64,000 bases of DNA from Coriobacteriales bacterium. GTDB lineage: Bacteria; Actinomycetota; Coriobacteriia; Coriobacteriales; Atopobiaceae. This document shows positions 296 through 49,380 of this stretch, one piece after another. The stretch spans positions 6,186-70,185 of the forward strand of contig JAUMWN010000002.1 in the NCBI GenBank assembly GCA_030529625.1, read 5' to 3'. Position numbers and translations under genes: made by a program. The stretch's first letter is position 1, and each line of letters starts with the position of its first letter. The notes below the pieces were generated by a model, which did no database searches, was not told the origin of the DNA, and was given only the letters and a program-made list of their open reading frames with translations.

Positions 296-2332
296 TTACA
301 GTTCGGCGCGCAGGTCGTCCAGCAGCGGGCCGCCCTCGCCGCGACGCCAGTACATCCAGCCGCTCTGCCCCGCGGGCGTGGCGCCCTGCGAGGTGAGGAA
401 CCGCTCGTAGGCCGCGGTGGGATCCTCGAACATCTCGCCGTTGGCCAGCATAATCTTGCCCGTTGAGGTAACGGTCGCCTTGCCCGGGTGCATGGGGCTC
501 ACGCTCACCAGCGCGTCGTCCATCTCCACGAGACCCGCCTGGAACAGGTCGGCAAAGCTCACGTCCTTGGTTGCCGCCGCACGTTTGGACAGGCGATACG
601 CACGACCCGCCCCCTCGGGCAGCTGCGGGATAGCCCAGATCTGGAGCGCCAGCGACGCCAGGCGCTCAGTGCGGTCCCGCATGTGCTCGGGCGTCCAGGC
701 GTCCTCATCAAGCACGCTGGCGCTCAGGGCAAGGCCGTCTGCGGCCAGGCGCTCGCGCTTTTGCACAAAGTCGCCCTCCTGCAGGTCGAAGCCGGCCGAG
801 GTGAGCGAGAGGTTACCCAGGCAGTTGATGCCGTCCTCAAAGGAGCGCTCGGGCGAGGCACCCAGCATGGCCACCCACGACGCGTCGTCAAGTGCGCCCA
901 TGGGCATGATGTGCTCGATTGTCCAGTCGCGAGGCTCCATGCGCGCGCCGTCGCGCAGGTGCTCCTCGATGCGTGCCAAAAGGAAGCGCCCGCCGGCAAA
1001 GTTTGCCATGTCCCGGCGCGTGAGGGCGTGCACGAACTCCGCGTCGTTGGGGAACCGCCGTGCTGTGCCGGCCTCGTTGAGCAGCATCGCGTTGAGGGCC
1101 TCCACCACGTCGCCCTCCTCGGCGCGTACGGCATCGATGCGCGCGATGAGCGACGAGAAGAACGGCGCGAGCGTGCTGCCCGCGCAGTCACACACGGCCC
1201 GCCGCAGCAGGTAGCTCTCAAGTGCGGCCACCAGCTCCAGGAACTGGGCACGCGAGAACTCCTTGTGCTCGTAACCGTCATACAGGGCCACCAGCAGCGG
1301 ACGCACCGAGGGCTCTCCCAGCTGGTCGATGCGCACGAAGGCGCGCCCCAGCTCCACGTCGTCCACCTCGCCGTTTACCACCGCGGCGTAGTAGCGCGCG
1401 AAGCGCTTTATCTTGAGGCTCAGGTTCTTCATGCGGTCGTTCTTGTGGTAGCTGTTAAACAGCACGTAGCGCTTAAACGCCTGGTACACGTCCACCTTGG
1501 CCATGGACGTGGGCGCGTGCATGATGGTGAGGTAGCTGCGCAGGAAGTCGTCGAACGCCGCGTCAAAGCGCTCCACGCCCAGAATCTGCTCGATGGGCTG
1601 CCAGTAGGTGCGGTACAGCGCCGGCTGCTCCTCCAGCGAGTAGCTCATCAGCACGAAGTTGCGCACCAGGTCGGCGTTGGACAGGTCCTTGCCCGTCGCG
1701 TTCATGGACTCAAAGATGAGCTGCGGGTCGTCCTTGCCCTGCGAGAGCGCGATTGCCACGACCTCCAGCTGGTGCAGGCCCGCCCACACGGCCGCCACGT
1801 CGTCCAGCGCCTCCACGCGCCTGTCGAAGTACGCCAGGTTGCTCGCCAGCCGCGTGGTCGGGTCAAGCTCGGGCGTCTCGCCACGGCCCAGGGCGTCGAT
1901 CACCGCGCGATACGCCTCGCGGTCCGTCTTGGACAGCGTGAGCTTGTAGTAGTCGTCGCCCGTGCGAAAGCGGTTGGTGAGGTAGCCGCTCACCAGGATC
2001 TCCTTTGCCGAGAAGGGCAGCTCGCGCTCGGGGTGACGCTGGGCAAAACGCGCAAGGGCCACCAGCAAAAGCGATATGGTGGTAATGCGCTGCTGGCCGT
2101 CAATGAGCAACAGCGGCGCCACGCCCTCGCCCGACACGGAGCCGTCCTGGATGGTGACGATCGACCCGGTAAAGTGCACCGTGGACCTGCCCCTGCCCGT
2201 GGCCAGGATGTCGTCCCACAGCTGCGCGCACTGGGCCTCTCCCCACGAGTAGGGACGCTGATACACCGGAACCACAAAGCGCACGTTCATCTCGCTGATA
2301 AGACCGCAGATCTTGCGGGAATTGGCATCCAT
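296..2332 (-). CDS. DUF262/DUF1524 (GmrSD-like, ParB-type NTPase plus HNH-like nuclease) protein with an extra C-terminal domain
   Basis: ATG at 2332 is preceded by GGAGG. It has the motifs PVYQRPYSW and IDGQQR (DUF262) and the WTIEHIMP...GNLSL His-Me finger (DUF1524). The C-terminal ~110 aa end in GWMYWRR and resemble DUF4357/RAMA. Residues upstream of 2332 in the 1012-aa ORF are antisense to the binding-protein gene. Confidence 0.8.
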   Translation of the reverse strand: MDANSRKICGLISEMNVRFVVPVYQRPYSWGEAQCAQLWDDILATGRGRSTVHFTGSIVTIQDGSVSGEGVAPLLLIDGQQRITTISLLLVALARFAQRHPERELPFSAKEILVSGYLTNRFRTGDDYYKLTLSKTDREAYRAVIDALGRGETPELDPTTRLASNLAYFDRRVEALDDVAAVWAGLHQLEVVAIALSQGKDDPQLIFESMNATGKDLSNADLVRNFVLMSYSLEEQPALYRTYWQPIEQILGVERFDAAFDDFLRSYLTIMHAPTSMAKVDVYQAFKRYVLFNSYHKNDRMKNLSLKIKRFARYYAAVVNGEVDDVELGRAFVRIDQLGEPSVRPLLVALYDGYEHKEFSRAQFLELVAALESYLLRRAVCDCAGSTLAPFFSSLIARIDAVRAEEGDVVEALNAMLLNEAGTARRFPNDAEFVHALTRRDMANFAGGRFLLARIEEHLRDGARMEPRDWTIEHIMPMGALDDASWVAMLGASPERSFEDGINCLGNLSLTSAGFDLQEGDFVQKRERLAADGLALSASVLDEDAWTPEHMRDRTERLASLALQIWAIPQLPEGAGRAYRLSKRAAATKDVSFADLFQAGLVEMDDALVSVSPMHPGKATVTSTGKIMLANGEMFEDPTAAYERFLTSQGATPAGQSGWMYWRRGEGGPLLDDLRAEL

Positions 2333-2512
2333 GCTGCCTCCAATCCACGTACGGGCATCACCAAGAGCATACCGCAAAGTGGGGAGGGCGCTGCCAACCC
2401 GACCGCCAAACGTAAACCATCGGTTAAGGCTTTTGTTGCGAGAATCGCACACCTTGACGGCATCGCTAGGATTAGGCATCGGTATGGTTATCCACAAACA
2501 AGGGAGAACATC

Positions 2513-3325
2513 ATGAAGCTTCGTCAGTTTGGTGCCGCTCTTGGCGGAATGCTGCTCGCAGCATCGCTCGTTGCCTGCGGCGGATCGCAGAGTAGCGACA
2601 CGGCAACCACCCAGAGTGCCGACTCCACCGAGCCCGCCAAGTACAAGATCGAGACCGACGTGGCCTTCGCTCCGTTTGAGTACCTGGGCAAGAGCAACGA
2701 GTACGAGGGCATCGACGTGGACCTGCTCGCGGCCATCGCCAAGGACCAGGGCTTTGAGTACGAGCTCGACCCCGTGGGCTTTGACGCGGCGCTCCAAAAC
2801 GTGCAGTCCGGCCAGGCCGACGGCGTAATCGCCGGCGCGAGCATCACCGAGGAGCGCAAGGAGGTCTTTGACTTCTCCGATCCCTACTACGACTCCACCG
2901 TATGCTGCGCCGTCAAGGCCGACAGCAACATCAAGAGCTTTGAGGACCTCAAGGACAAGAACGTCGCCACCAAGACCGGCACCATGAGCGCCAAGTGGGC
3001 CGAGAGCCTCAAGGACCAGTACAACTTTACCACCACCGAGTTCAAGGACTCCGACATCATGTACCAGGACGTGACCTCCGGCAACTCCGTCGCCTGCTTC
3101 GAGGACACGCCCGTTATGAAGTACGCCATCAGCACCGGCAGCGTTGACCTCTCCGTGATTGAGGAGGCCGACGCCAAGAGCGAGTGGGCCACCCCGTATG
3201 GCTTCGCCGTAAAGAAGGGCCAGAACGCCGAGCTTCTCAAGAAGTTCAACGACGGCCTTGCCAACATCAAGAAGAACGGCACGTACGACGAGATCGTCAA
3301 CAAGTACGTGAAGGCCGACAAGTAA
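2513..3325 (+). CDS. Amino-acid ABC transporter substrate-binding lipoprotein
   Basis: MKLRQFGAALGGMLLAASLVACGG is a lipobox signal. The family-3 SBP body includes DVAFAPFEY and GFDAALQNVQSGQADGVIAG. It is followed by permease and ATPase genes. Confidence 0.9.
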   Translation: MKLRQFGAALGGMLLAASLVACGGSQSSDTATTQSADSTEPAKYKIETDVAFAPFEYLGKSNEYEGIDVDLLAAIAKDQGFEYELDPVGFDAALQNVQSGQADGVIAGASITEERKEVFDFSDPYYDSTVCCAVKADSNIKSFEDLKDKNVATKTGTMSAKWAESLKDQYNFTTTEFKDSDIMYQDVTSGNSVACFEDTPVMKYAISTGSVDLSVIEEADAKSEWATPYGFAVKKGQNAELLKKFNDGLANIKKNGTYDEIVNKYVKADK

Positions 3326-3342
3326 GTAGCGCATGTACCTGC

Positions 3343-3427
3343 GTCTCCGAGCGCGTCGCGCACGCGCTCGGAGACGATGCGAAGCCGCTTTTGCGCAGGG
3401 CGCCTAAAACGGCTTCGCATCGTCTCC
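3343..3427 (+). promoter_or_regulatory. Intercistronic mutually exclusive hairpins between the SBP and permease genes
   Basis: Stem A pairs 3343-3355 with 3363-3375 (13 bp). Stem B pairs 3370-3387 with 3410-3427 (18 bp). Both need GGAGAC at 3370-3375. Confidence 0.5.
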
Positions 3428-3455
3428 GGGAACGACGAAGAGAAAAGGATCTCGC

Positions 3456-4115
3456 ATGACGGATTTCCTCGAACTGCTCCAAGAGTCGATGCCGTTGCTT
3501 CTCAACGGCTTGGTACTCACCCTAGAGCTGTCCGCTGTCTCGTTGGTGATCGCCATGGTGCTGGGCATCCTGGCCTCGCTCATGGGCATGGCCAAAAACC
3601 CCGTGCTGCGTGGCATCAACCGCGTGTACGTGGCCATCATCCGCGGCACGCCGCTGCTGGTACAGGGATTCTTCATTTACTTTGGCATTACCGGCCTGCT
3701 CAACATTCGCATCTCGGCGTTTATGGCGGGCGTGATTGCCCTCTCGCTTAACGCGGGAGGCTACCTCTCGGAGATCTTCCGCGGCGGCATCCAGGCCGTG
3801 GATCCCGGGCAGCGCGAGGCGGCTCGAAGCCTGGGCCTGTCCGCACGCCAGACCACGTGGCGCATCATCATTCCGCAGGCCATTCGCATCTGCATTCCCT
3901 CGGTGGTCAACCAGTGGTGCATCACCATTAAGGACACCTCCATCATCAGCGTCATTGGCCTTGCCGAGCTCACCAAGGTGGGCCAGCAGATCATCGCGCG
4001 CACATACCGCTCCTTTGAGGTGTGGATCATCGTGGGCATTATGTACTTCATAATTATTTACCTGCTCACCATTCTTGCACGCTACGTCGAGAGGAAGGTG
4101 TCACTCGATGGCTAA
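3456..4115 (+). CDS. Amino-acid ABC transporter permease (His/Glu/Gln/Arg family)
   Basis: 219 aa with the EAARSLG-type EAA loop ([24 protein letters not shown]) and multiple TM segments. Confidence 0.9.
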
Positions 4116-4868: not shown

Positions 4869-4937
4869 GTACTCGGGGGACAGTCCCCTGTGTTTAGGGG
4901 ACTGTCCCCTAAACACAGGGGACTGTCCCCCGAGTAC
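4869..4937. repeat. REP-like palindromic repeat, family GGGGACAGTCCCC (three units)
   Basis: GTACTCGGGGGACAGTCCCCTGTGTTTAGGGGACTGTCCCCTAAACACAGGGGACTGTCCCCCGAGTAC. The same family recurs at 14208, 28992, 31261, 34110 and 59590/61351. Confidence 0.85.
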
Positions 4938-38146: not shown

Positions 38147-39676
38147 CTACAGTTTGGCGTATTCCTGGAGGTACCTCTGGGTGACGCCGTTGTAGGTTTT
38201 GCCGGGAGCGTCCGAGCCCTTCGGGACAATCACGACCTGAATCGCCTCGGCGCGGCGGCTCATGCCCGTGGTGCCAGCGGGCTGACCGTTCTCCGCCCAG
38301 CCCATCCAGCCTAAGCGCTGGGAGTGCACGCGGTAGCGTATGTCGAAAATGTCCGCCGCCTCCCCGGTGAGGCGGATCTCAAAGGCCTCCGCGCGAAGCG
38401 ATTGGCCAGTGGTGCCGGACACCTGGCCGTCGGACTTCCAGGTCTTCTCCCAACCAGACTTCTGCAAGTGGCAGCGGTACTCTATGCCGCCCGAAATGCT
38501 GTTGGGAAGCTTGAGCGTGAGCGCCTCGAGCCGGCGCGACTTGCCAACGGTGCCAGCGCCGCCGTCGTCTGCCACGGAATCCATCCAGCCCGCGCGCTGC
38601 ACATGCGCGGTGACGGTGGGTGCCGTCACGGGCGGCGGCGTAACGGACACCACGCATTTACCGGACTTGCCGCTGCCGTCATTCGCCGTAGCGGTAATGT
38701 ACGCCCTGCCGACGGCCACGGCGGTGACCTTGCCGTTGGCGTCGACCTTGGCGACGTCATCGTCGTCGCTCTTCCACGTGACGGTCTTGTCGGCTGCGTC
38801 GTCAGGCGTGACGATCGCCTTCAGCTCCTTCGAATCGCCTACGGCGATGGACACCGTCGCCGGATCGACCGTTACGCCCGTGACCGCAACGATGGCGGTG
38901 GTCTGTACCCACTTCGACTTGTCCCAGCTCTCGTAGGCTTTGCCGGTAACGTCTACATCGTTCTTCTCGTCTGCACCGGCCTTGACGTTGATACCTGCAC
39001 CGATCGTCACGTTGCCGCCGGGAGCACTGATGCCGCCAGAGTTTTCTTTCCCATTGGCGATGGCAGTGACGGTGCCGCCGTTGATTGTTATGTTTTGGGC
39101 CCTAATGCCGCCACCCATGCCAGTGGCGATCAAACTACCGCTGCCGGTAATGATGATGCTGTTGCTGCCTTCCGAAGGGTCATAATCAATACGGCCAGCA
39201 ATGCCAAATACTGTGGCTTTGATGCTGTTGCTGCCCTTAAGTTCGATGGTCAGGTCTCCACCGCCCGAGTACTGGATTCCACGATCACACTCTGGAGAGA
39301 GCTGTGTACCGTCGAAGGTGTAGCCATTGAGCGTCAAAGTGCCACCGCCACCCGCAGCGGGCGTGAAGCTCACCTTGCCGTCGCCAAAGACGTTGCCAGC
39401 GTTATCGCTCGTTACCTGCGTGCCGCCGACCCTAAGGCCATAGTCCTTCACCTCACCCACTAGGCCATCCTGCACCGTCACCACTGGCTCCTCAGCGATG
39501 ACGTCCTCGCCCTGCACGACGGCCACCGGCTCCACGGCGCCCTCCGGTTCGACCTCGACCTCGCCGGCCAGGGCGATAGCCGGGCACAGCCCCAGCACCA
39601 TCACGAGTGCCGCGAACAGGCTCAGCACGAACCTGCGGAGCGACCTCCCCTCGAACGACTGCTCCGCACTTCTCAT
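38147..39676 (-). CDS. Secreted surface protein: beta-helix-like region, Big_2 domain, three ChW (clostridial hydrophobic W) repeats
   Basis: Signal peptide MRSAEQSFEGRSLRRFVLSLFAALVMVLGLCPAIALA. Big_2 includes VTGVTVDPATVSIAVGDSKELKAIV. ChW repeats include HVQRAGWM...GTVGKSRRLEAL and HSQRLGWMGW...GTTGMSRRAEAIQV. Confidence 0.85.
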   Translation of the reverse strand: MRSAEQSFEGRSLRRFVLSLFAALVMVLGLCPAIALAGEVEVEPEGAVEPVAVVQGEDVIAEEPVVTVQDGLVGEVKDYGLRVGGTQVTSDNAGNVFGDGKVSFTPAAGGGGTLTLNGYTFDGTQLSPECDRGIQYSGGGDLTIELKGSNSIKATVFGIAGRIDYDPSEGSNSIIITGSGSLIATGMGGGIRAQNITINGGTVTAIANGKENSGGISAPGGNVTIGAGINVKAGADEKNDVDVTGKAYESWDKSKWVQTTAIVAVTGVTVDPATVSIAVGDSKELKAIVTPDDAADKTVTWKSDDDDVAKVDANGKVTAVAVGRAYITATANDGSGKSGKCVVSVTPPPVTAPTVTAHVQRAGWMDSVADDGGAGTVGKSRRLEALTLKLPNSISGGIEYRCHLQKSGWEKTWKSDGQVSGTTGQSLRAEAFEIRLTGEAADIFDIRYRVHSQRLGWMGWAENGQPAGTTGMSRRAEAIQVVIVPKGSDAPGKTYNGVTQRYLQEYAKL

Positions 39677-39814
39677 GAGTCGCTCCCTTCTCGCGGGTCT
39701 GCCCGTAGATGAATAGACGCTTAAGACTCTACCATTCCTTAGCTGTAGCACGGCATGGTAATAGCCCAGGTGAAACCTAGGGGATACTCTCCCAGTTCCG
39801 TCTGGCCGTGACTG

Positions 39815-39917
39815 ATGTCCAAAAGGGAAGAGGCACTTTTGGGACACTGGGTAGGGCCATGCCATACCGCAAAGGTTGCTGGATGTGTTCCAAAGGTGCC
39901 TCTTCCCTTTTGGACAT
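39815..39917. repeat. Palindromic element, family GTCC-N4-GGGAAGAGG (22-bp perfect arms)
   Basis: ATGTCCAAAAGGGAAGAGGCAC (39815-39836) pairs with GTGCCTCTTCCCTTTTGGACAT (39896-39917). Confidence 0.75.
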
Positions 39918-39958
39918 TCCCGCGAGTGCTCTAGACATCGATGGTTTTCTCAGATACC

Positions 39959-40120
39959 CGTTCACTCGCGTAATTGGGGTCAGTGTTTGAATTCCGAGGC
40001 TCTTTTCTCCGTATGGCGAAAACGAGACCCGCAAAACCGCAGGTCAGGAGCCCGACAATGCGGCCCCGTATATACGGAGCCCGGAATTCCATACACTCAT
40101 CCCCATCTCACGAGTGAACG
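39959..40120. repeat. About 160-bp imperfect long inverted repeat (MITE-like or structured RNA)
   Basis: CGTTCACTCG...GAATTCCGAGGCTC...CTCCGTAT on the left matches ATACGGAGCCCGGAATTCC...CGAGTGAACG on the right. The arms are about 75% complementary over about 55 nt. Confidence 0.5.
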
Positions 40121-40257
40121 GCACCTCCAGAAAACCGCCCGGACCACCACACGTGGGCATCCGCAGCTAAGAGCTCCCCAAACTGTACAGATAAGACCGG
40201 CCTTATCTGCAGCCCTCCTGCAAAGCCGCAGGTCACAGGTCTGTTTGTAAAGAATCC

Positions 40258-40305
40258 GCAGTTAGGGGTGCCCTTACCTGTACAGGTAAGGGCACCCCTA
40301 ACTGC
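40258..40305. repeat. Perfect 48-bp palindrome
   Basis: GCAGTTAGGGGTGCCCTTACCTGTACAGGTAAGGGCACCCCTAACTGC. Confidence 0.85.
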
Positions 40306-40529
40306 AAGCTCATCCCTTTGTCCCGTCAGCTGAAGAGTCTGCCGAAAACTTCCGTGGTGGGCCGCCGGGCGCGGGGGGGGTTGTGGCGCGCGGGAGGGGG
40401 GTGTTGATTCTCCGCGAAGATATGCTGAGAACTGCACTGGTGCATAGATTATCTGCGCACCGCTGCAGTTTTCGGCAAACGTCGACGCCGGACCTGTGCA
40501 TCACTGCAGATTCCAGCGGATCCCGAGTT

Positions 40530-40605
40530 GGGAAAAGGGGTCTGGCCCCTTTTCCCAGGTGAGAGGACACGGGGGACATACCTCGAAGAGGTGTGTCCCC
40601 CGAGT
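40530..40605. terminator. Two hairpins downstream of ChW surface protein 2
   Basis: GGGAAAAGGGGTCTGGCCCCTTTTCCC at 40530-40556 and CGGGGGACATACCTCGAAGAGGTGTGTCCCCCG at 40570-40605. Confidence 0.55.
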
Positions 40606-40616
40606 ACGGCTTGGCG

Positions 40617-42187
40617 TTAGCGCGTGGCCCACTTCTTGACGAAGGCCTTGGCGTACTGCTGCGTGACGCCCTTGTACGTGGCGTCTGGCGCCGGCGCGTC
40701 CTTCTTCACGAGCACGACCTGGATCGCCTCTGCGCGGCGGCTCATGCCCTGCGTGCCTGCCTCCTCGCCGTTCTTGGCCCAGGCCATCCAGCCGATGCGC
40801 TGCACGTGGACGCGGTAGTAGACGTCGTAGGCGTCCTTTGCCTCGCCGGTAAGCTGGATCTGCACGGCCTCAACGCGGCGGGACTTGCCCGTGGTGCCCG
40901 CGGCGGTGCCGTCGATGACGGGGTCCATCCAGCCGATGCGCTGCACGTGGGCGGTGACGGAGGCGTCGGGGACGACCACCGGCTCTTCCTTCTTCTCTTC
41001 CTGCTTCTTGAAGTTGGCCGTGGCGGTGACGTCGGCGGCGCCCATGGTGAGCGTGGTCGTGGCGTTGTCGAGCTTGGCGCCGTCGCCCTCAAGGGTCCAG
41101 TTGACGAACTCGTACCCGTCGGTCGCCGTGGCGGTGAGGGTCACGATCGCGCCCTCCTCGGCCTTCTCCGCGCTCGCCTCAACCTTGCCGCCCTCGGCCG
41201 GGTCGGCTTTCACGGAGACGGCATACGTGGACACCGGGAACTGAACCTTCTTGTATTCCAGCGTCTGACCCTCATCGTTGACGGCGATGGAATTTCCGGC
41301 ACCCGTTCCCGCCGCGTCCGACCAGCCCAGGCCAGCGACGGCGTTCGTCACCTTCGTGTTCTTATCAAAGGCTCTGGTGCCACCCGACGCGATGAATTTG
41401 GTGACGTCCTTTCCCACAACCACGCCGTTTATGGCGGAGATGCCGTTTTTGCCACCCGTGGCAGTCACCTTGCCGCCGGTGATTGCAACCGTGCCATATG
41501 ATACGATGCCTTTTTCGTTACCTTCGGCGGTCACCTCGGCGTTGCTAATGGTGATGTTGGAGTTAGCTCTAATGCCTATCGAGTATTGCGAACCTTTGGA
41601 GATGGCGGTAACCGTGGCGTTGTCTTTGATGGTGACCTCAGACAAGTAGCTGTAGACGCCGTCGAAGCCACCCTCTGCGGTAAGGGTACCGTCGCCGCTT
41701 ATGACGATGCCTTTCTCATACGAATAAACGCCTTCATCTTTGGCCCTGACGCTGTTGTCGCCGACGAGCACGATGGTCAGATCCTTTTCTTTGCCCGTGT
41801 AGTCGATTGCCTTATCGGTATTCGAAGTATCGTCGAAGGTGTAGTTGGTCAGCGTCACGGTATTGCTGTCCGGGTCGTAGCTGGCGGTGCCAGTTTTCGT
41901 TGCGCCTGCTGCTGCCGGGATGTCTGTCTTGTTGGTAACCGACACCTGCGTGCCGCCAACCCAGAGGGGATAAAAATCCGCCTGCACCGAAACCTCGGGC
42001 TCCTTCTCGCCGACGCTCTCGATCTGTACGACGGCCACCGGCTCCACGGTGCCCTCGGGCTCGACCTCGACCTCGCCGGCAAGGGCGACCGCCGGGCACA
42101 GGCCCAGCACCAACACCAAGGCCGCGACCAGGCTCAACGTGAGCTTACGGAAACCCCCCCCCCGAACGTATGTTTTGCGCTTCCCAT
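40617..42187 (-). pseudogene. ChW-repeat surface protein paralog, frameshifted at a G10 tract (phase-OFF state or assembly error)
   Basis: The ATG at 42187 has the same leader and RBS as the paralog, but is out of frame by 1 nt with the long ORF after the homopolymer. The body has a beta-helix-like region, a GGKVEASAEKAEEGAIVTLTATATDGYEFVNW B-repeat-like domain and ChW repeats HVQRIGWM. Confidence 0.75.
42154..42163 (-). repeat. Homopolymer: G10 on the coding strand (C10 on the + strand)
   Basis: Counted directly: aaaCCCCCCCCCCgaacg. Confidence 0.95.
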
Positions 42188-42338
42188 GAGCCGCTCCCTT
42201 CTCGCGGGACGTCACGCCCGCATTGGAGTGAATATAGACAGTGGAAACACAACCATTTCCCACGGCTCCTGACGCTGCGGGGGCGCAGTGAGACGGGTGA
42301 GCGGTGGGAGCTGGGTAGACGTAGACTCCCTCTGCAAG

Positions 42339-42700
42339 CTCCTCGCCAATCACCCTGCCGTGACGAAGGCAACTGTGTACCCGCGCATCGGCTCGGTCGT
42401 TGTGTGTTACGACAGCCTGGACGCGAGCGCTACGCGGAGGTGGAGTACGTGGTCGCGCACGGCCTTGCGTCGTCTCTGGAGGGCATGCGTGTGGTGCTGG
42501 GGTTTGCGCACGTGGTACTGCTCACGGGCGGCAACCAGCAGTCGGCGGGACGCATCGCGCGCGAGGTGGCCGACGTGACGCTCACCGAGTCCGACCTGTT
42601 CTCGCTCATTCGCCCGCGCAAGCTGAGCATGAGGCTGATGGACCGGCTGGACGCAAGCTATCGCGCCATCATGCTGTGGAACTCGGCTGCCCGCGTGAGG
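42339..42700 (+). pseudogene. Heavily deleted remnant of a heavy-metal P-type ATPase
   Basis: An HMA-like piece, LLANHPAVTKATVYPRIGSVVVCYD, shifts frame into YAEVEYVVAHGLAS. It then joins directly to VVLLTGGNQQSAGRIAREV-ADVTLTESDLFSLIRPRKLSMRL, which is P-domain fragments fused together. Confidence 0.5.
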
Positions 42701-42950
42701 CGGGGCGGTTTTAGTTGCCGCAGAATCACATTTTGGGCGCCTCGGGGTTGGGCTGCGGGATGGCCGGCCTTCTCACCTGCGCTTTTGTTGCGGCACGGCA
42801 TGGCGCGCAGAACGGTTTTAGTTGCCTGCTAGTTATCATGTGGGACGTTGGGCTCTAGCCAACGGCCACGTGGAGGTACGTCGATGAGCAAGAGTATGCG
42901 CGAGTACGGCGCGACGACATAGGCATCGTCGGGAATGGGCTACGCGCTTC

Positions 42951-44171
42951 CTACGGGCGTATTCTGCGAACTTCTCCGCTGCTTTTTGCCCTCAGGGGAA
43001 CAGATGCGCGTAGCATCTTGGCGAGCTCGGTATGGTGGACAACCGGCAAAGCGGCGAGCTCTTTGGCCTGTTCTCGAACAAAAGCATCCAAGCAGGCAAC
43101 CCTGCGTCTTCCTGCCAACACGTTTCCCACGATTCCACGTGACGCAACGCGCTCGAGCATCTCCTGCTGGACCTCCCCCTTAATGCGCCCAGCCAGTTCC
43201 AGGAAGCTGGTCCCTCCAAAGGCAGGCGCCCTAAGACTGGCCTCAAGCATAAACTGTTTCTCATCATCATCGGCGACGTTGGGAAAGAGACTCCTACCAT
43301 TATCGAAGATAGGCGCCAAGCCAATCGCCTTCCCAGTAGCATTATCTCGAAGCACCCCAAAGTTCGTGAGGTGCCTGTCGGTGTTGCAAACGAGTGCGTC
43401 GAAGACAAGCATGCTGCACACGTCTTCTAAACACGCAGCCCCCATCTCGACACACCAACGCAGCACACCCGCAAGACCCGTCTCGCCCGTTGCCACGGCA
43501 AAAGGCACATACGAGACCTGCTTGGATGCAAAGTTCTCGCATGTCGAGCAAGTCTCGCCATCCCATGATTCAATGCTGTAGGCAACGGCGTCAAGACCAG
43601 CATCGCGCGCAATCAATGAGGCAAGGTACTCTGACACGGGCTCGCCAGGCACAAAGCCATCCGTCGAGCCCTTATAGAGTGTTCTCACGTCGTTAACGAT
43701 TCGCCAGCCCTTTCGCAGGGTGCCGTCAGTCGTGAGCTCCGGCGTATTGCCATGCAAGTCGGCTACGCTCGGCTCCCTTGCGACTGCCAGCGCACCAATG
43801 GCCTCGCTAAAGGGGTTGTCGTACAGGTTGAAGTCGTCGAAGCGCCCCGTAAAGCCTCTGGGCACGACCCAATAGGAGTCGTTGAGCGAGAGACCCATGC
43901 TTGTTCGGTACAACGCCTCACGGTCCCCAAGCTCAAACCCCAAGCTCCTGCAAATCTGCGTGGCGTTCTTCCTGTTGGTGGGAATAGAGCGCGTCTCGAG
44001 CCAAGTCCAGACTCCGTCCGCATCGAGCGAGATGCCGCAAGGCATAAGGTCCCATGCATCGTCATCAAAGTCGACCACGGTTACCTCTGGGCCAAAGGGC
44101 GTGTCGTCGATTGAGAACTCAACGAGACATCTGTCGAAGAGCCTCAGCTCGTAGTATCGCCTGCCTGCCAT
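42951..44171 (-). CDS. hipA: HipA-family serine/threonine kinase toxin
   Basis: MAGRRYYELRLFDRC start. The catalytic loop is VCNTDRHLTNFGVL. The ATG lies 2 nt after the hipB-like stop. Confidence 0.85.
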   Translation of the reverse strand: MAGRRYYELRLFDRCLVEFSIDDTPFGPEVTVVDFDDDAWDLMPCGISLDADGVWTWLETRSIPTNRKNATQICRSLGFELGDREALYRTSMGLSLNDSYWVVPRGFTGRFDDFNLYDNPFSEAIGALAVAREPSVADLHGNTPELTTDGTLRKGWRIVNDVRTLYKGSTDGFVPGEPVSEYLASLIARDAGLDAVAYSIESWDGETCSTCENFASKQVSYVPFAVATGETGLAGVLRWCVEMGAACLEDVCSMLVFDALVCNTDRHLTNFGVLRDNATGKAIGLAPIFDNGRSLFPNVADDDEKQFMLEASLRAPAFGGTSFLELAGRIKGEVQQEMLERVASRGIVGNVLAGRRRVACLDAFVREQAKELAALPVVHHTELAKMLRASVPLRAKSSGEVRRIRP

Positions 44172-44173
44172 GA

Positions 44174-44395
44174 CTAACCATGCTCCCGAATCACGAGGCC
44201 CATCCCAAGATAGCTGGCGTAGCGCAGTATCTTTCCGTAGGCGACCGTGTCGCGTCCGTTCTCTATCTCCGAGACGAGCCGATGCGAAAAGCCGAGGTCT
44301 GCCGCGGCCTTTGATTGAAGAATGCCCAAGTGCTTCCTGCGGTCGCGCAGGGCGTGCCCCAAGTCGGTTCCTTCCCATATGGGCGTTTCCGTCAT
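44174..44395 (-). CDS. hipB: XRE-family HTH antitoxin (HipB-like)
   Basis: LGHALRDRRKHLGILQSKAAADLGFSHRLVSEIENG. Confidence 0.8.
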   Translation of the reverse strand: MTETPIWEGTDLGHALRDRRKHLGILQSKAAADLGFSHRLVSEIENGRDTVAYGKILRYASYLGMGLVIREHG

Positions 44396-44410
44396 CGCGG
44401 CTCCTCTTGG

Positions 44411-44483
44411 ATGTACGTTTGCGTACATTATGAACAGAATTTACGTATACGTGAAGTATAGGATAACTTTACGCATGTGTAAA
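44411..44483. promoter_or_regulatory. AT-rich hipBA upstream region with three TACG/CGTA palindromes
   Basis: ATGTACG-TTTG-CGTACAT at 44411-44428, ACGTATACGT at 44443-44452 and TTTAC-GCATGT-GTAAA at 44468-44483. Confidence 0.45.
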
Positions 44484-44582
44484 CTGAGACGTGCGATGGT
44501 AGTGTTTGGGGACGCATGCGGGGCAAAAGCCGCCGTCATGTGTCCCCAAACGCTACCAACGCCAACCGCGCGACCGTCTTGC

Positions 44583-45437
44583 TCAGCACATGAACGCGGG
44601 CATCACGTCCTCGGTCCCGCGCTCGTTGCACAGGCGCGCGGCCTCTGCAATCTGCTCCAGGGCAATGGCCACGCCGTCGTCTGCGGAGGCACCAATATGC
44701 CAGCGAGCCGCAGCCTTGGCGTTGTCGTTGGCGTTGGCAACGGCGCACGAGTTGGTCACGTACGAGAGCATCGTGAGGTCGTTGTCCGCGTCGCCAAACA
44801 CGCACACCTCGTCGGGCGTGAGGTTGAGCGTGCGCATGAGCTGCTTTACGCCCTCCACCTTTGTCCAACCCTTGATGGAAACGTCCAGCCAACGATCGAC
44901 GGTGTTGGGAAAGTCGAGCTCCGGGCAGACCTCGGCAAGCTCCGCCTGCAGCTCCTCGAGCTCAGCCTGGCTTCCCATGCAAATGACCCCGGCCTTTCCC
45001 ACAGGATACACAGGCAGCCGCTCGTGCCACATCCCGCCCGCGAGAAAGGCGCGATTGTACATCGAGCCCAGCTCCTCGCGCGAGACGCCCACCCAATCGC
45101 CAAGGCCATCCGAGCGATACGTCACGAACGCGCAGCCGGGACGTTCGGCCACCATACGCTCGGCCTTGCGCAAGGGTTTCTCATCAAGGCTCCGCTCAAA
45201 GACCAGCGACCGCAGGTAGTAGACCTTTTGGCCGTTGACCGCGACGGCCGTGTTGTAGCAGCTGCGGTCTCCGCCAAAGAAGCTCGCGAGCTCGGCGCGG
45301 TCTCGGCCGGTCGTGGGGCCAAAGTCCACGCCCTGCTCCTGGCAGGCGTGAATGGCGTCGATGGTGCGTTGCGAGACGCGCTCCCGGCCAAACGGGATGA
45401 GCGTGTTGTCCATATCGGAGAGCGCAAGCTTAATCAT
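44583..45437 (-). CDS. Cof-type HAD-IIB phosphatase
   Basis: MIKLALSDMDNTLI...GDADNDLTML. Confidence 0.85.
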   Translation of the reverse strand: MIKLALSDMDNTLIPFGRERVSQRTIDAIHACQEQGVDFGPTTGRDRAELASFFGGDRSCYNTAVAVNGQKVYYLRSLVFERSLDEKPLRKAERMVAERPGCAFVTYRSDGLGDWVGVSREELGSMYNRAFLAGGMWHERLPVYPVGKAGVICMGSQAELEELQAELAEVCPELDFPNTVDRWLDVSIKGWTKVEGVKQLMRTLNLTPDEVCVFGDADNDLTMLSYVTNSCAVANANDNAKAAARWHIGASADDGVAIALEQIAEAARLCNERGTEDVMPAFMC

Positions 45438-45675
45438 GAGTAGATCCTTTCTGTCAGCCGCACGAGGGGCGGTCAATCGGCGCGTTGCGAATGCGATGGT
45501 TTCCATGGTACAGGACCTTGCTGCAAACGGCATGCATGAAGAGGTAGCGCGAAGCAGAACTCTTCACGGGCAGACCAGATTCGTGCTGGCGTCGGTAGGA
45601 TTGCCGAAGCTTGCGGTCCTCTGGGTCTCGAATGTGTTAGCATAAGCTAACTGCTTGAGACGATCGAGGAGCCCC

Positions 45676-46275
45676 ATGTTGCTCTCAGCCAAGAAGTTCG
45701 ACCCGCTCATCGCTGCCCTGTGCGACCGCTTTGGCACAGACGATGCGGCCAGGATCTGGGTGGACGCAGAGCAGCGGCTCGAAGGACTGATTGCCACCAC
45801 GGCCGACCTGAGCGACGGGGAGCGCATGCATGCCGAGGGGTTTATCTATCCCATGTGCGCGCTGTTCCTAGCCATCGCGAATCGCTGCGGACGCGAGGAG
45901 GCGAAGCAAATCTGTGCCAACTTCATGCGCCAGACGGCGCTGGCCAAAGGCGAGGCGCTGCAAAAGCTGCTGCGGGCGCCTGGCATGCGGAGCGTCTTTA
46001 TGAAGCTCTTTGGCATCATGGGTCGCCGCCTCTTTGGCGAGAAGGCCGGCTTTGAGCAGCACATACACGAATGCACCACCAGACGCCTGCGCATGGACAT
46101 CCTTGCCTGCCCGTATCTGCGCCACTGCACCGCCGCCGGTGCGCCAGAGATTGCTCCGCTGTTTTGCGCCAACGACGAGTACGCGTACGGCAACCTCCCC
46201 GGCATAACGTTCCAGCGCAGCGGCACGCTCGCGAATGGCGCCGAACGCTGCGACTTCCTGCTGACGAGAGCATAG
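45676..46275 (+). CDS. L-2-amino-thiazoline-4-carboxylic acid hydrolase family protein
   Basis: C-terminal CPYLRHCTAAGAPEIAPLFCANDEYAYGNLPGITFQRSGTLANGAERCDF. The ATG follows GAGGAG. Confidence 0.65.
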   Translation: MLLSAKKFDPLIAALCDRFGTDDAARIWVDAEQRLEGLIATTADLSDGERMHAEGFIYPMCALFLAIANRCGREEAKQICANFMRQTALAKGEALQKLLRAPGMRSVFMKLFGIMGRRLFGEKAGFEQHIHECTTRRLRMDILACPYLRHCTAAGAPEIAPLFCANDEYAYGNLPGITFQRSGTLANGAERCDFLLTRA

Positions 46276-47858: not shown

Positions 47859-49073
47859 ATGGCACTGCACATCGTCGAGGAGGCGGAGCGCTGCCTCAAC
47901 TGCAAGCGGCCCCAATGCCAGAAGGGGTGTCCCGTCGGCACGGCCATTCCGCTGGTAATCCAGCTCTTCCGCGAGCGCAGGCTGGACGAGGCCGGGGCGC
48001 TGCTGTTCCAAAACAACCCCATGAGCGCGGTGTGCTCGCTCGTGTGCAACCACGGCGCGCAGTGCGAGGGCCACTGCGTGCTGGGGCGCAAGGGCACGCC
48101 CGTGCACTTTAGTGCCATCGAGCACTACGTGTCCAGCGCCTACCTGCATCGCCTGCGCATGGAAAAGCCCGAGCCGTGCGGCAAGCGCGCGGCCGTAATC
48201 GGAGGCGGCCCGGCAGGCCTGGTCGCCGCGCTTAGGCTCGCACAGGTGGGCGTGGACGTGACCATATTCGACGCCAACCCGCGCCTGGGCGGCATCATGC
48301 GCTACGGCATCCCGGAGTACCGCCTGCCCAAGGACGAGATCGACCGCTACCAGGCGCTGCTCGTGAGCCTGGGCGTAAGAATACGCCACAACACCTCCAT
48401 TGGCGCCTCGCTGCTCATAGGCGACCTGTTCCGCGACGGCTACGACGCTGTGTTCGTGGGCACCGGCACCTGGCGCGCGCAGACCCTGGGCGTCGACGGC
48501 GAGGCGGGCGGCAACGTGCTCTTTGGCCTGGACTACCTGAGGAGCCCCCAGACCGCCGAGATAGGCGAGCGCGTGGCCGTGATCGGCGCGGGCAACACGG
48601 CCATGGACGTGGCACGCACGGCGTTTCGCCAGGGGGCCAATGAGGTTACGCTGTACGCGCGGAGCAAGCACGTGTCGGCGAGCTCCGACGAGCTGGAGTT
48701 CGCGCTGCTCGACGGCTGCGAGCTCGTGCAAGGCAAGGCCATCTGCGAGATCAACGAGCGCGGGCCGGTGTTCCGCACGGCCATCTTCGACGAGGACGAC
48801 AAGGTCGTGGGCTACGAGGAGGAGCTGGACCAGGTGGAGTGCGACACGGTGATCGTGGCCGTCTCCCAGAAGCCCAAGAACAAGCTCATCCAGACCACCG
48901 AGGGCTTGGAGGGCGACGAGCGCGGGCTGCTCGTGGTGGACGAGCGCGGCATGTGCACCGTGCCGGGCGTCTTTGCCGCAGGCGACGTGGTGACCGGCCC
49001 CAACACCGTGGTGCACGCCGTTGCCGCCACCAAGGTGGCCGTGGAGGGCATGCTGGAGTACATGAGAGTATGA
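47859..49073 (+). CDS. GltD-like NAD(P)H-dependent FAD/Fe-S oxidoreductase (glutamate synthase small-subunit family)
   Basis: CLNCKRPQCQKGCPVGTAIP, CSLVCNHGAQCEGHC, VIGGGPAGL and RYGIPEYRLPK motifs. Confidence 0.85.
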   Translation: MALHIVEEAERCLNCKRPQCQKGCPVGTAIPLVIQLFRERRLDEAGALLFQNNPMSAVCSLVCNHGAQCEGHCVLGRKGTPVHFSAIEHYVSSAYLHRLRMEKPEPCGKRAAVIGGGPAGLVAALRLAQVGVDVTIFDANPRLGGIMRYGIPEYRLPKDEIDRYQALLVSLGVRIRHNTSIGASLLIGDLFRDGYDAVFVGTGTWRAQTLGVDGEAGGNVLFGLDYLRSPQTAEIGERVAVIGAGNTAMDVARTAFRQGANEVTLYARSKHVSASSDELEFALLDGCELVQGKAICEINERGPVFRTAIFDEDDKVVGYEEELDQVECDTVIVAVSQKPKNKLIQTTEGLEGDERGLLVVDERGMCTVPGVFAAGDVVTGPNTVVHAVAATKVAVEGMLEYMRV

Positions 49074-49077
49074 GCAC

Positions 49078-49380
49078 ATGGCCGTCCTAGAAAGGCTCAG
49101 GCGACAGCAAGGTTTTACCGAAACAGAAAAGGTGCTGGCAGACTACGTCCTTGCGCATGCCGACATGATGGCATGCATGAGCATATCGCAGCTCGCGGAG
49201 GCAACGTACAGCTCCAACGCGAGCATCGTGCGCCTGTGTCGCAAGGTGGGCATCGACGGGTACCGCACCTTTAGGATGGAGGTCGTCTCCGAGCTGGAGC
49301 GTCAGCGGTCGCGCACCTGGACCGAGAGCATGGAGGCACGCGAGCGTTACAAACAGAGTACCTTGGCCGGTCTTGAGTAA
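49078..49380 (+). CDS. RpiR/MurR-family HTH domain only (SIS domain missing)
   Basis: FTETEKVLADYVL...SISQLAEATYSSNASIVRLCRKVGIDGYRTFRM. The protein ends at 100 aa. Confidence 0.65.
   Translation: MAVLERLRRQQGFTETEKVLADYVLAHADMMACMSISQLAEATYSSNASIVRLCRKVGIDGYRTFRMEVVSELERQRSRTWTESMEARERYKQSTLAGLE

Follow-up and report, generated by a model that had tools for sequence, protein, structure and literature searches.

A poly-G tract among the signal-peptide codons of a presumed ChW-repeat surface-protein gene, a candidate phase-variable site in a Coriobacteriales bacterium

The sortase-dependent pilin genes bbr_0113 and bbr_1889 of Bifidobacterium breve UCC2003 contain an intragenic G11/G12 tract that turns them ON and OFF by replication slippage (Penno et al. 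2022, PMC9187656). Here we describe an uninterrupted G10 tract in the gene of a presumed surface protein with ChW (clostridial hydrophobic W) repeats, located on the minus strand of a 64,000-nucleotide stretch of a Coriobacteriales metagenome-assembled genome (MAG; GCA_030529625.1, contig JAUMWN010000002.1, positions 6,186 to 70,185), hereafter called the window, to which all positions refer unless another contig is named. The B. breve pilin tracts are the closest known analogue. In both cases, a gut actinobacterium has a tract of 10-12 G's early in a surface-protein gene, where it parts the Sec signal from what follows. In both, the frame is broken in the reference genome, and the start annotated downstream has neither a Shine-Dalgarno (SD) sequence nor a signal peptide. 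The number of G's sets the state in B. breve and would do so here. The two also differ: in B. breve, LPXTG pilins are encoded in a sortase operon and the tract is genus-wide, whereas the tract reported here occurs in one sub-lineage and precedes a ChW-anchored beta-solenoid. The B. breve switch is backed by maximum-depth sequencing, by in-frame strains made for the purpose and by passage through mice, whereas the present locus is known from consensus sequences.

Repeats within signal-peptide codons are also present in Neisseria, where the opa genes carry CTCTT repeats at this place. In N. gonorrhoeae and N. meningitidis, a poly-G tract lies in the signal-peptide codons of pilC (Jonsson et al. 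1991, as cited in PMC2193922), and PMC2193922 gives frameshift ON/OFF rates of 1e-2 to 1e-4 per generation for Neisseria poly-G/C tracts of at least 7 nt. The locus described here resembles pilC in that a surface or adhesion protein has a repeat among its signal-peptide codons, but the Neisseria species are Gram-negative pathogens in which such loci are many and switching is proven, and the proteins, their export and their anchoring are unrelated. Homopolymer-tract phase variants of Mycobacterium tuberculosis, in glpK (7C) and other genes, are described in two reports (bioRxiv 10.1101/717272, PMC10334774). These concern a member of the Actinomycetota without MutS-MutL in which reversible frameshifts in short G/C runs are adaptive. 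However, the M. tuberculosis tracts, followed in thousands of isolates, are of about 7 nt and lie in metabolic or ESX-associated genes rather than in the signal-peptide codons of a surface-anchored protein.

ChW repeats (PF07538) are presumed to give non-covalent attachment to the cell wall through a ligand that is unknown (PMC5817068). Like the ChW proteins of Clostridia and some Actinobacteria, the product of the window gene has two C-terminal ChW repeats above the Pfam threshold, but most of the described ones are endolysins or hydrolases (PMC5817068), whereas here the repeats follow a beta-solenoid passenger without a match to a catalytic domain. No published case of a phase-variable ChW protein came to our notice, and a full-text literature search for phase variation at homopolymeric tracts in Coriobacteriia returned no paper. 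The mechanism considered here is ordinary and already known; what is new is the host class, Coriobacteriia, and the protein family, ChW.

The G10 tract and the frame of its gene

On the minus strand, the leader CCCGCGAGAAGGGAGCGGCTC is followed by ATG GGA AGC GCA AAA CAT ACG TTC, the ten G's and TTTCCGTAAGCTCACGTTGAGC. Read directly from the sequence, the tract begins 24 nt past the ATG, which is served by an AAGGGAG SD sequence (Table 1). An initial annotation, made from the sequence alone, had reported a G10 run at this place and a leader shared with the start of a downstream paralog at 39676. Both observations held, as there are exactly ten G's on this strand and the two leaders are the same but for one G/A change. 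The leader is also common to the two related loci described in the next section.

Translation from the ATG in the G10 state yields MGSAKHTFGGGVSVSSR and ends at a TGA, which agrees with the initial reading. The TGA overlaps by two bases (cgTTGAgc) the TTG at 42137-42135 that the Prokaryotic Genome Annotation Pipeline (PGAP) takes as the start. When the gene was rebuilt in silico with 5 to 13 G's, G5, G8 and G11 gave products of 521-523 amino acids (aa) and the other lengths gave 12-18 aa, so that a change in repeat number toggles the reading frame. The earlier statement that one extra G restores the frame was thus right but incomplete, since G8 (and G5) restore it too. The G11 product of 523 aa begins MGSAKHTFGGGGFRKLTLSLVAALVLVLGLCPAVALA, and its alignment with the signal peptide of the paralog is free of gaps, which bears out the colinearity noted at first. 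The paralog carries an interrupted GAGGGGAGG where the window gene has the homopolymer, again as first noted. With ten uninterrupted G's in coding sequence, the tract has the form expected of a contingency-locus repeat, namely an uninterrupted run in a coding or promoter region of about 7 or more G's or C's, the instability threshold for G/C runs being taken from PMC2193922.

The preprotein encoded at G8 or G11 (522/523 aa) comprises a signal peptide, a beta-solenoid passenger, an InlB-type B-repeat and two ChW repeats. As judged by eye, its N-terminus has an n-region made basic by K5, R14 and K15, then a hydrophobic core of 15 residues and an ALA/G cleavage site. A lipoprotein reading of the LGLC motif was dropped, since position -1 is Leu/Val and not Gly/Ala/Ser (by eye). 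The product is presumed to be surface-exposed, given the signal-peptide-like N-terminus (by eye), the ChW repeats and the InlB B-repeat. The 506 codons of the gene body contain no stop and no second frameshift and give strong domain matches. For ChW (PF07538), the score is 107.5 bits against a cut-off of 22, in two stretches, with HVQRIGWM motifs at 40949 and 40808. The passenger gives a weak Pfam match to Beta_helix_3; an AlphaFold model built from 15 family members is a confident all-beta solenoid with pLDDT above 90 over most of the passenger. A Foldseek search of this model against the PDB returned no significant match, the best being a beta-helix lyase-like protein (E 0.2). Disabling mutations besides the tract, which the initial annotation had named as the mark of a plain pseudogene, are absent from this body.

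The gene body is 100% identical to the PGAP protein Q4A01_00580 of the 'Coriobacteriales bacterium' MAG, begun at TTG 42137 with MSLVAALV..., and the nearest full-length homologs are about 50% identical and come mainly from rumen MAGs (RUG12554, RUG13846). By starting at a TTG within the signal peptide, PGAP has made a seemingly 'normal' protein of 506 aa out of a frameshifted gene, so that both secretion and an OFF state are invisible in databases, a difficulty also described for B. breve (PMC9187656). The signal peptides of this ChW family tend to be clipped by gene callers even where there is no frameshift. For example, P0008 (L001 364-415, JGI 3300037453) is called from a TTG within the signal peptide, with an in-frame ATG and a good SD sequence 51 nt upstream. 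Its truncated 'L' start was considered as another OFF allele and dropped, because the ATG is in frame and the start is a mere choice of the gene caller.

G10 is the longest homopolymer in the window; a G8 comes next, and three runs reach 7. Long open reading frames (ORFs) contain about 11 runs of 6-7 nt; these are ORFs with a high G+C content at third codon positions (GC3), and no run breaks a frame in them. Ten suspect neighbouring ORFs are separate complete genes with end-to-end Pfam coverage. A generalised indel error in the assembly was rejected on these grounds.

Tract length in related genomes

A comparison of tract length in relatives had been named beforehand in the initial annotation, and when it was run the length proved not to be fixed (G10, G8 and G6). 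GTDB representative genomes, a set that lies outside the window's own MAG, were scanned with a signal-peptide motif from a 6-sequence alignment; two loci were returned, and the RUG12554 locus (L003) was found in this way. A protein search with the L003 ORF led to a second relative, L036 (GCA_978017355.1, P0122). Both relatives are MAG lineages of rumen-type Coriobacteriaceae.

L003 (2503-3168) is 94.6% identical to window positions 42018-42686 over 669 bp, which cover the upstream region, the leader, the ATG and the first 55 codons. Its tract is G8 (3025-3032) followed by TGTCC and is in frame, reading MGSAKHTFGGGVRKLTLSLVAALALVLGLCPAVALAGEVEVEPEG. L036 (3224-4099) is 88% identical to the window over 897 bp. 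It has the same ATG and leader, followed by G6 and TGTCC, and is out of frame with a stop after 12 codons; its annotated start lies within the signal peptide. In a three-way alignment of about 700 columns with 97% mean identity, indels are limited to the tract (10/8/6) and a single non-coding base. A comparison of L036 with L003 over 3.5 kb shows no frame-breaking indel but the tract, the other indels being intergenic or net in-frame, and no G/C run other than the orthologous tract reaches 7 in about 40 kb of related loci. The tract thus varies in length (10/8/6) between related genomes with flanks 88-95% identical, and two of the three lineages that carry this 5' module are out of frame. As judged from these alignments, the tract is a real length-variable site at which the indels of the locus concentrate, and the differences among relatives argue for slippage and against a pure assembly artefact.

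The origin of the tract may be read from the rest of the family. In the other members, the 15 nt between the Phe/Leu-8 and Arg-14 codons consist of an interrupted G-rich 9-mer and TCGCTC. G11 plus TTTC is exactly 15 nt, G8 plus TGTC is one codon shorter, and G10 lacks a single base of the colinear length. This suggests that the tract arose from the interrupted G-rich 9-mer that the rest of the family has kept. The P0113/P0066 and P0092 loci showed neither tracts nor frameshifts on inspection. An exact-flank pattern around the tract had 0 matches in metagenome contigs. A DNA pattern for the family signal peptide had 31 matches in metagenome contigs (a set outside which the sample of L001 lies), all unrelated, being RnfE-like LGLCPALAV proteins and chance matches. 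A protein search with the N-terminal 87 aa alone gave no match.

Beyond codon 55, the gene bodies of the window and of L003/L036 are unrelated, and the three genomes share at 88-95% identity a 5' module made up of the upstream region, the leader, the signal peptide and an EVEVEPEG linker. This suggests that passenger bodies have been swapped by recombination behind a conserved 5' expression module. The window's MAG also contains, on another contig, the family-related gene P0004 (Q4A01_07785), whose N-terminus MDAWEEVAPWARAGPVR matches the +2-frame reading of the family leader in 16/17 first residues (compared with L004 3015-3104). The canonical ATG must then lie in another frame than the body, and P0004 is by implication a second family member with a 5' frameshift. 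Here the shift seems to be located in the hydrophobic-core codons and not at a long homopolymer.

A proposed switch and its alternatives

Together, the tract, its effect on the frame, the otherwise intact gene and the polymorphism in tract length between related genomes point to a slippage-prone, phase-variable site of the contingency type, which would switch a surface-protein gene ON and OFF and would currently be OFF. We consider this reading the most probable of those weighed here, though evenly poised between holding and failing. In the proposed model, replication strand slippage alters the number of G's in the tract. With 8 or 11 G's, ribosomes that start at the ATG and its SD sequence would read through to give a complete Sec-type signal peptide and a protein of about 520 aa (ON). 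This product would be exported, and its mature beta-solenoid and B-repeat would be held on the wall by the ChW repeats. With 9 or 10 G's (or 6, 7), translation would end after 12-18 codons (OFF), with at most a trickle of restart at the overlapping TTG, from which the signal peptide would lack its positively charged n-region. The sampled MAG population would be mostly OFF, one +1 slip from ON. All analysed Coriobacteriia were without MutS-MutL and NucS (Castaneda-Garcia et al., PMC5290159), so slippage loops should stay unrepaired and G10 should be highly unstable if this MAG is the same. We infer that switching would be frequent and reversible within the population and of benefit to the organism.

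If the model is true, some uncultured Coriobacteriaceae of the rumen or gut have a stochastically varying surface, like that of mucosal pathogens and bifidobacteria, which would bear on the pressures of phage, host immunity and adhesion. Since both mismatch-repair systems are reported absent in Coriobacteriia (PMC5290159), any long homopolymer in this class is predicted to be hypermutable, and the ChW tract locus would be a convenient place to test this.

Several observations weigh against the contingency reading. Dinucleotide-preserving shuffles of the window contain a mean of 0.18 G10/C10 runs, and 13 of 100 shuffles have one; the significance of the tract is that of its position and of the comparison with related genomes, not of the run itself. 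The carriers of G10, G8 and G6 belong to three separate lineages rather than to a single species. The ten contigs that carry G8 come from the RUG12554 lineage; they are near-clonal, with 0-1 differences over 2.5 kb, their tract does not vary, and they tell little in either direction. The organism of the window is represented by one consensus sequence, a MAG from one sample, and in a collection of 5.8 billion proteins the cluster of Q4A01_00580 consists of a single member on a single contig. The absence of mismatch repair is taken from literature at the level of the class (PMC5290159) and not from this MAG's genome. Finally, the uninterrupted tract is limited to one sub-lineage, and 6 other family loci are without it. 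The slipped-strand contingency locus of the initial annotation is borne out in part: the length does vary, the body is intact and the window has no indel noise, but the genes behind the tract in the relatives are damaged, which fits decay too.

One possible alternative is indeed plain decay. The tract would then be a hot spot of mutation and the gene a young pseudogene rather than a used switch, its frameshift being one of several routes by which dispensable ChW paralogs are lost in these genomes. This is unlikely in our view, although it is a serious competitor and the strongest of the alternatives. All three carriers of the 5' module are damaged. In addition to G10 in the window, the RUG12554 gene (P0121, 240 aa, L003 3001-3723) is an internally deleted, 3'-truncated remnant of an L036-type gene, and the L036 gene (4001-5210) has, besides G6, a second, non-homopolymer frameshift at about 4915-4935, just before the ChW repeats. 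Damage behind the tract in both relatives is also expected from relaxed selection. Decay would likewise account for the 5' frameshift implied for P0004 of the same MAG, which is not at a homopolymer, and for a tract that is not conserved family-wide. However, the window gene is intact apart from the tract: its body has no second lesion over 506 codons, its domain profiles are matched end to end and its solenoid is modelled confidently. A single +1 slip regains the family-colinear product. With no known mismatch repair, G10 would revert frequently, and irreversible loss is not what it predicts. Mechanistically, the tract would act as a switch even in a decaying gene.

Less probable still is a miscall in sequencing or assembly, the alternative named in the initial annotation, with a true length of G11 (or G8), an intact gene and G10 as a consensus error. 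G10 is one base from the family-colinear G11, and the sequence is the MAG consensus of one sample. In B. breve, G11-12 tracts give aberrant Illumina reads, and the database length differed from the population majority (Penno et al., PMC9187656). Against this, there is no other sign of indel error in the 64 kb, and independent assemblies of the relatives differ at the same site by 2 and 4 bases with flanks free of indels. Mixed reads, moreover, would themselves favour phase variation.

It is very improbable that the G10 allele is expressed anyway, either by reinitiation at the TTG after the TGA, which would give the 506-aa product, or by slippage of the polymerase in transcription or of the ribosome along the G's, which would regain the frame in part of the molecules. 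The 17-codon frame ends in a stop that shares two bases with the TTG, as in translationally coupled genes, and this TTG is the start called by PGAP, but it has no upstream SD sequence and its product (MSLVAALV...) has no Arg/Lys n-region, which Sec signal peptides normally require. The RNA of 42100-42230 (-) does not fold better than its shuffled controls do (z +1.32), and programmed recoding was rejected for want of a stimulatory RNA structure at the tract; G runs are not typical slippery heptamers. In the B. breve analogue, the downstream 'start' was found inactive and the mechanism was replication slippage (PMC9187656).

It is tempting to speculate beyond the single gene. Rumen and gut Coriobacteriaceae without mismatch repair might run a variable-surface-protein system, in which recombination moves the 5' module (promoter, SD sequence, signal peptide, EVEVEPEG linker) between ChW-anchored passengers and poly-G adds stochastic ON/OFF switching in one lineage of the module. 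We hold this combined proposal as doubtful and offer it tentatively. Hints are the 94.6% identity of the 5' module in front of unrelated bodies (window and RUG12554), the location of the two longest G/C runs in the ChW cluster and the 5' frameshift of P0004. If true, no contingency-locus system would have been described before it either in Coriobacteriia or for ChW proteins, and its logic would be comparable to that of Neisseria Opa/PilC or Mycoplasma Vlp/Vsp.

The ChW cluster and its surroundings

The features of the locus are listed in Table 1. The upstream motif of the window gene is near-identical in L003 and L036, and a similar motif precedes the paralog and the gene of L002; with its TATATT it is presumed to be the promoter of the 5' module. 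A scan for sigma-70 consensus promoters and terminators around the ChW gene found no promoter and nothing informative.

Table 1 Features of the ChW locus in window coordinates
Feature	Position	Strand	Remark
G10 tract (C10 on +), uninterrupted	42154..42163	-	codons 9-12, signal-peptide n-region; slippage-prone site
Translation start: SD-like GAGAAGGGAG (42203-42194), 6-nt spacer, ATG (42187-42185)	42185..42203	-	direct read
17-codon frame in the G10 state, MGSAKHTFGGGVSVSSR then TGA (42136-42134)	42134..42187	-	translation from the ATG
Conserved upstream motif GGAAATGGTTGTGTTTCCACTGTCTATATTCAC with TATATT -10-like hexamer (42236-42231)	42221..42260	-	presumed promoter of the 5' module
Signal-peptide hydrophobic core and ALA/G cleavage region LSLVAALVLVLGLCPAVALA	42078..42137	-	by eye; conserved across the family
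ChW surface-protein gene body as annotated (P0001, 506 aa, Q4A01_00580)	40617..42137	-	open, intact; joins the ATG frame only at G5/G8/G11
Passenger domain, predicted all-beta solenoid, P0001 residues ~55-270	41328..41975	-	AlphaFold model
InlB-type B-repeat domain (Pfam Flg_new_2)	41001..41216	-	E 1.8e-17, above curated cut-off
Two C-terminal ChW repeats, presumed wall-binding module	40620..40967	-	PF07538, E 2.7e-31
Second-longest homopolymer, G8 on + / C8 on the ChW coding strand	40373..40380	+	repeat-rich 940-bp spacer; connection to the finding uncertain
Downstream paralog P0116, 509 aa, three ChW repeats and Big_2	38147..39676	-	same leader and signal peptide, in frame

The paralog lies about 1 kb downstream of the G10 gene, and both of the longest G/C runs of the window sit within this 4-kb ChW cluster. 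The non-coding spacer between the two ChW genes (39680-40617, 940 bp) is dense in inverted repeats. It contains a perfect 48-bp palindrome at 40258-40305, an inverted repeat with 33-nt arms (39815-39847 / 39885-39917, 94% complementary) and another with 45-nt arms (39958-40002 / 40077-40121), and 26-nt arms (40337-40362 / 40455-40480) flank the G8/C8 run on both sides. No Rfam family matched anywhere in the window, this spacer included.

Upstream of the ChW gene lies a divergent ORF remnant (window ~42290-42830, +; L003 2387-2785, -) that is about 95% conserved and is called as a gene of 117-132 aa in the relatives. It has no Pfam match, and by eye its VVMLTGDN stretch recalls P-type ATPases. 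Just upstream of the locus, a 475-aa ORF (42951-44378, -) matches HipA_C (toxin kinase-like) barely above the Pfam threshold, with a GC3 below that of its neighbours. The segments 42951-44378 and 44182-46166 resemble insertions relative to L003 and L036. Farther away, a 104-aa ORF (49066-49380, +) has a complete RpiR-type HTH_6 domain, no SIS domain and then a gene on the opposite strand, and it may be a truncated regulator. Among the RUG12554-type contigs, L037-L039 and L040-L041 differ in the region of about 2285-3723: a nagA-like (Amidohydro_1) and a nagB-like (Glucosamine_iso) gene are fused into a 386-aa ORF in some and form two ORFs in others, the difference being an indel near position 2908.

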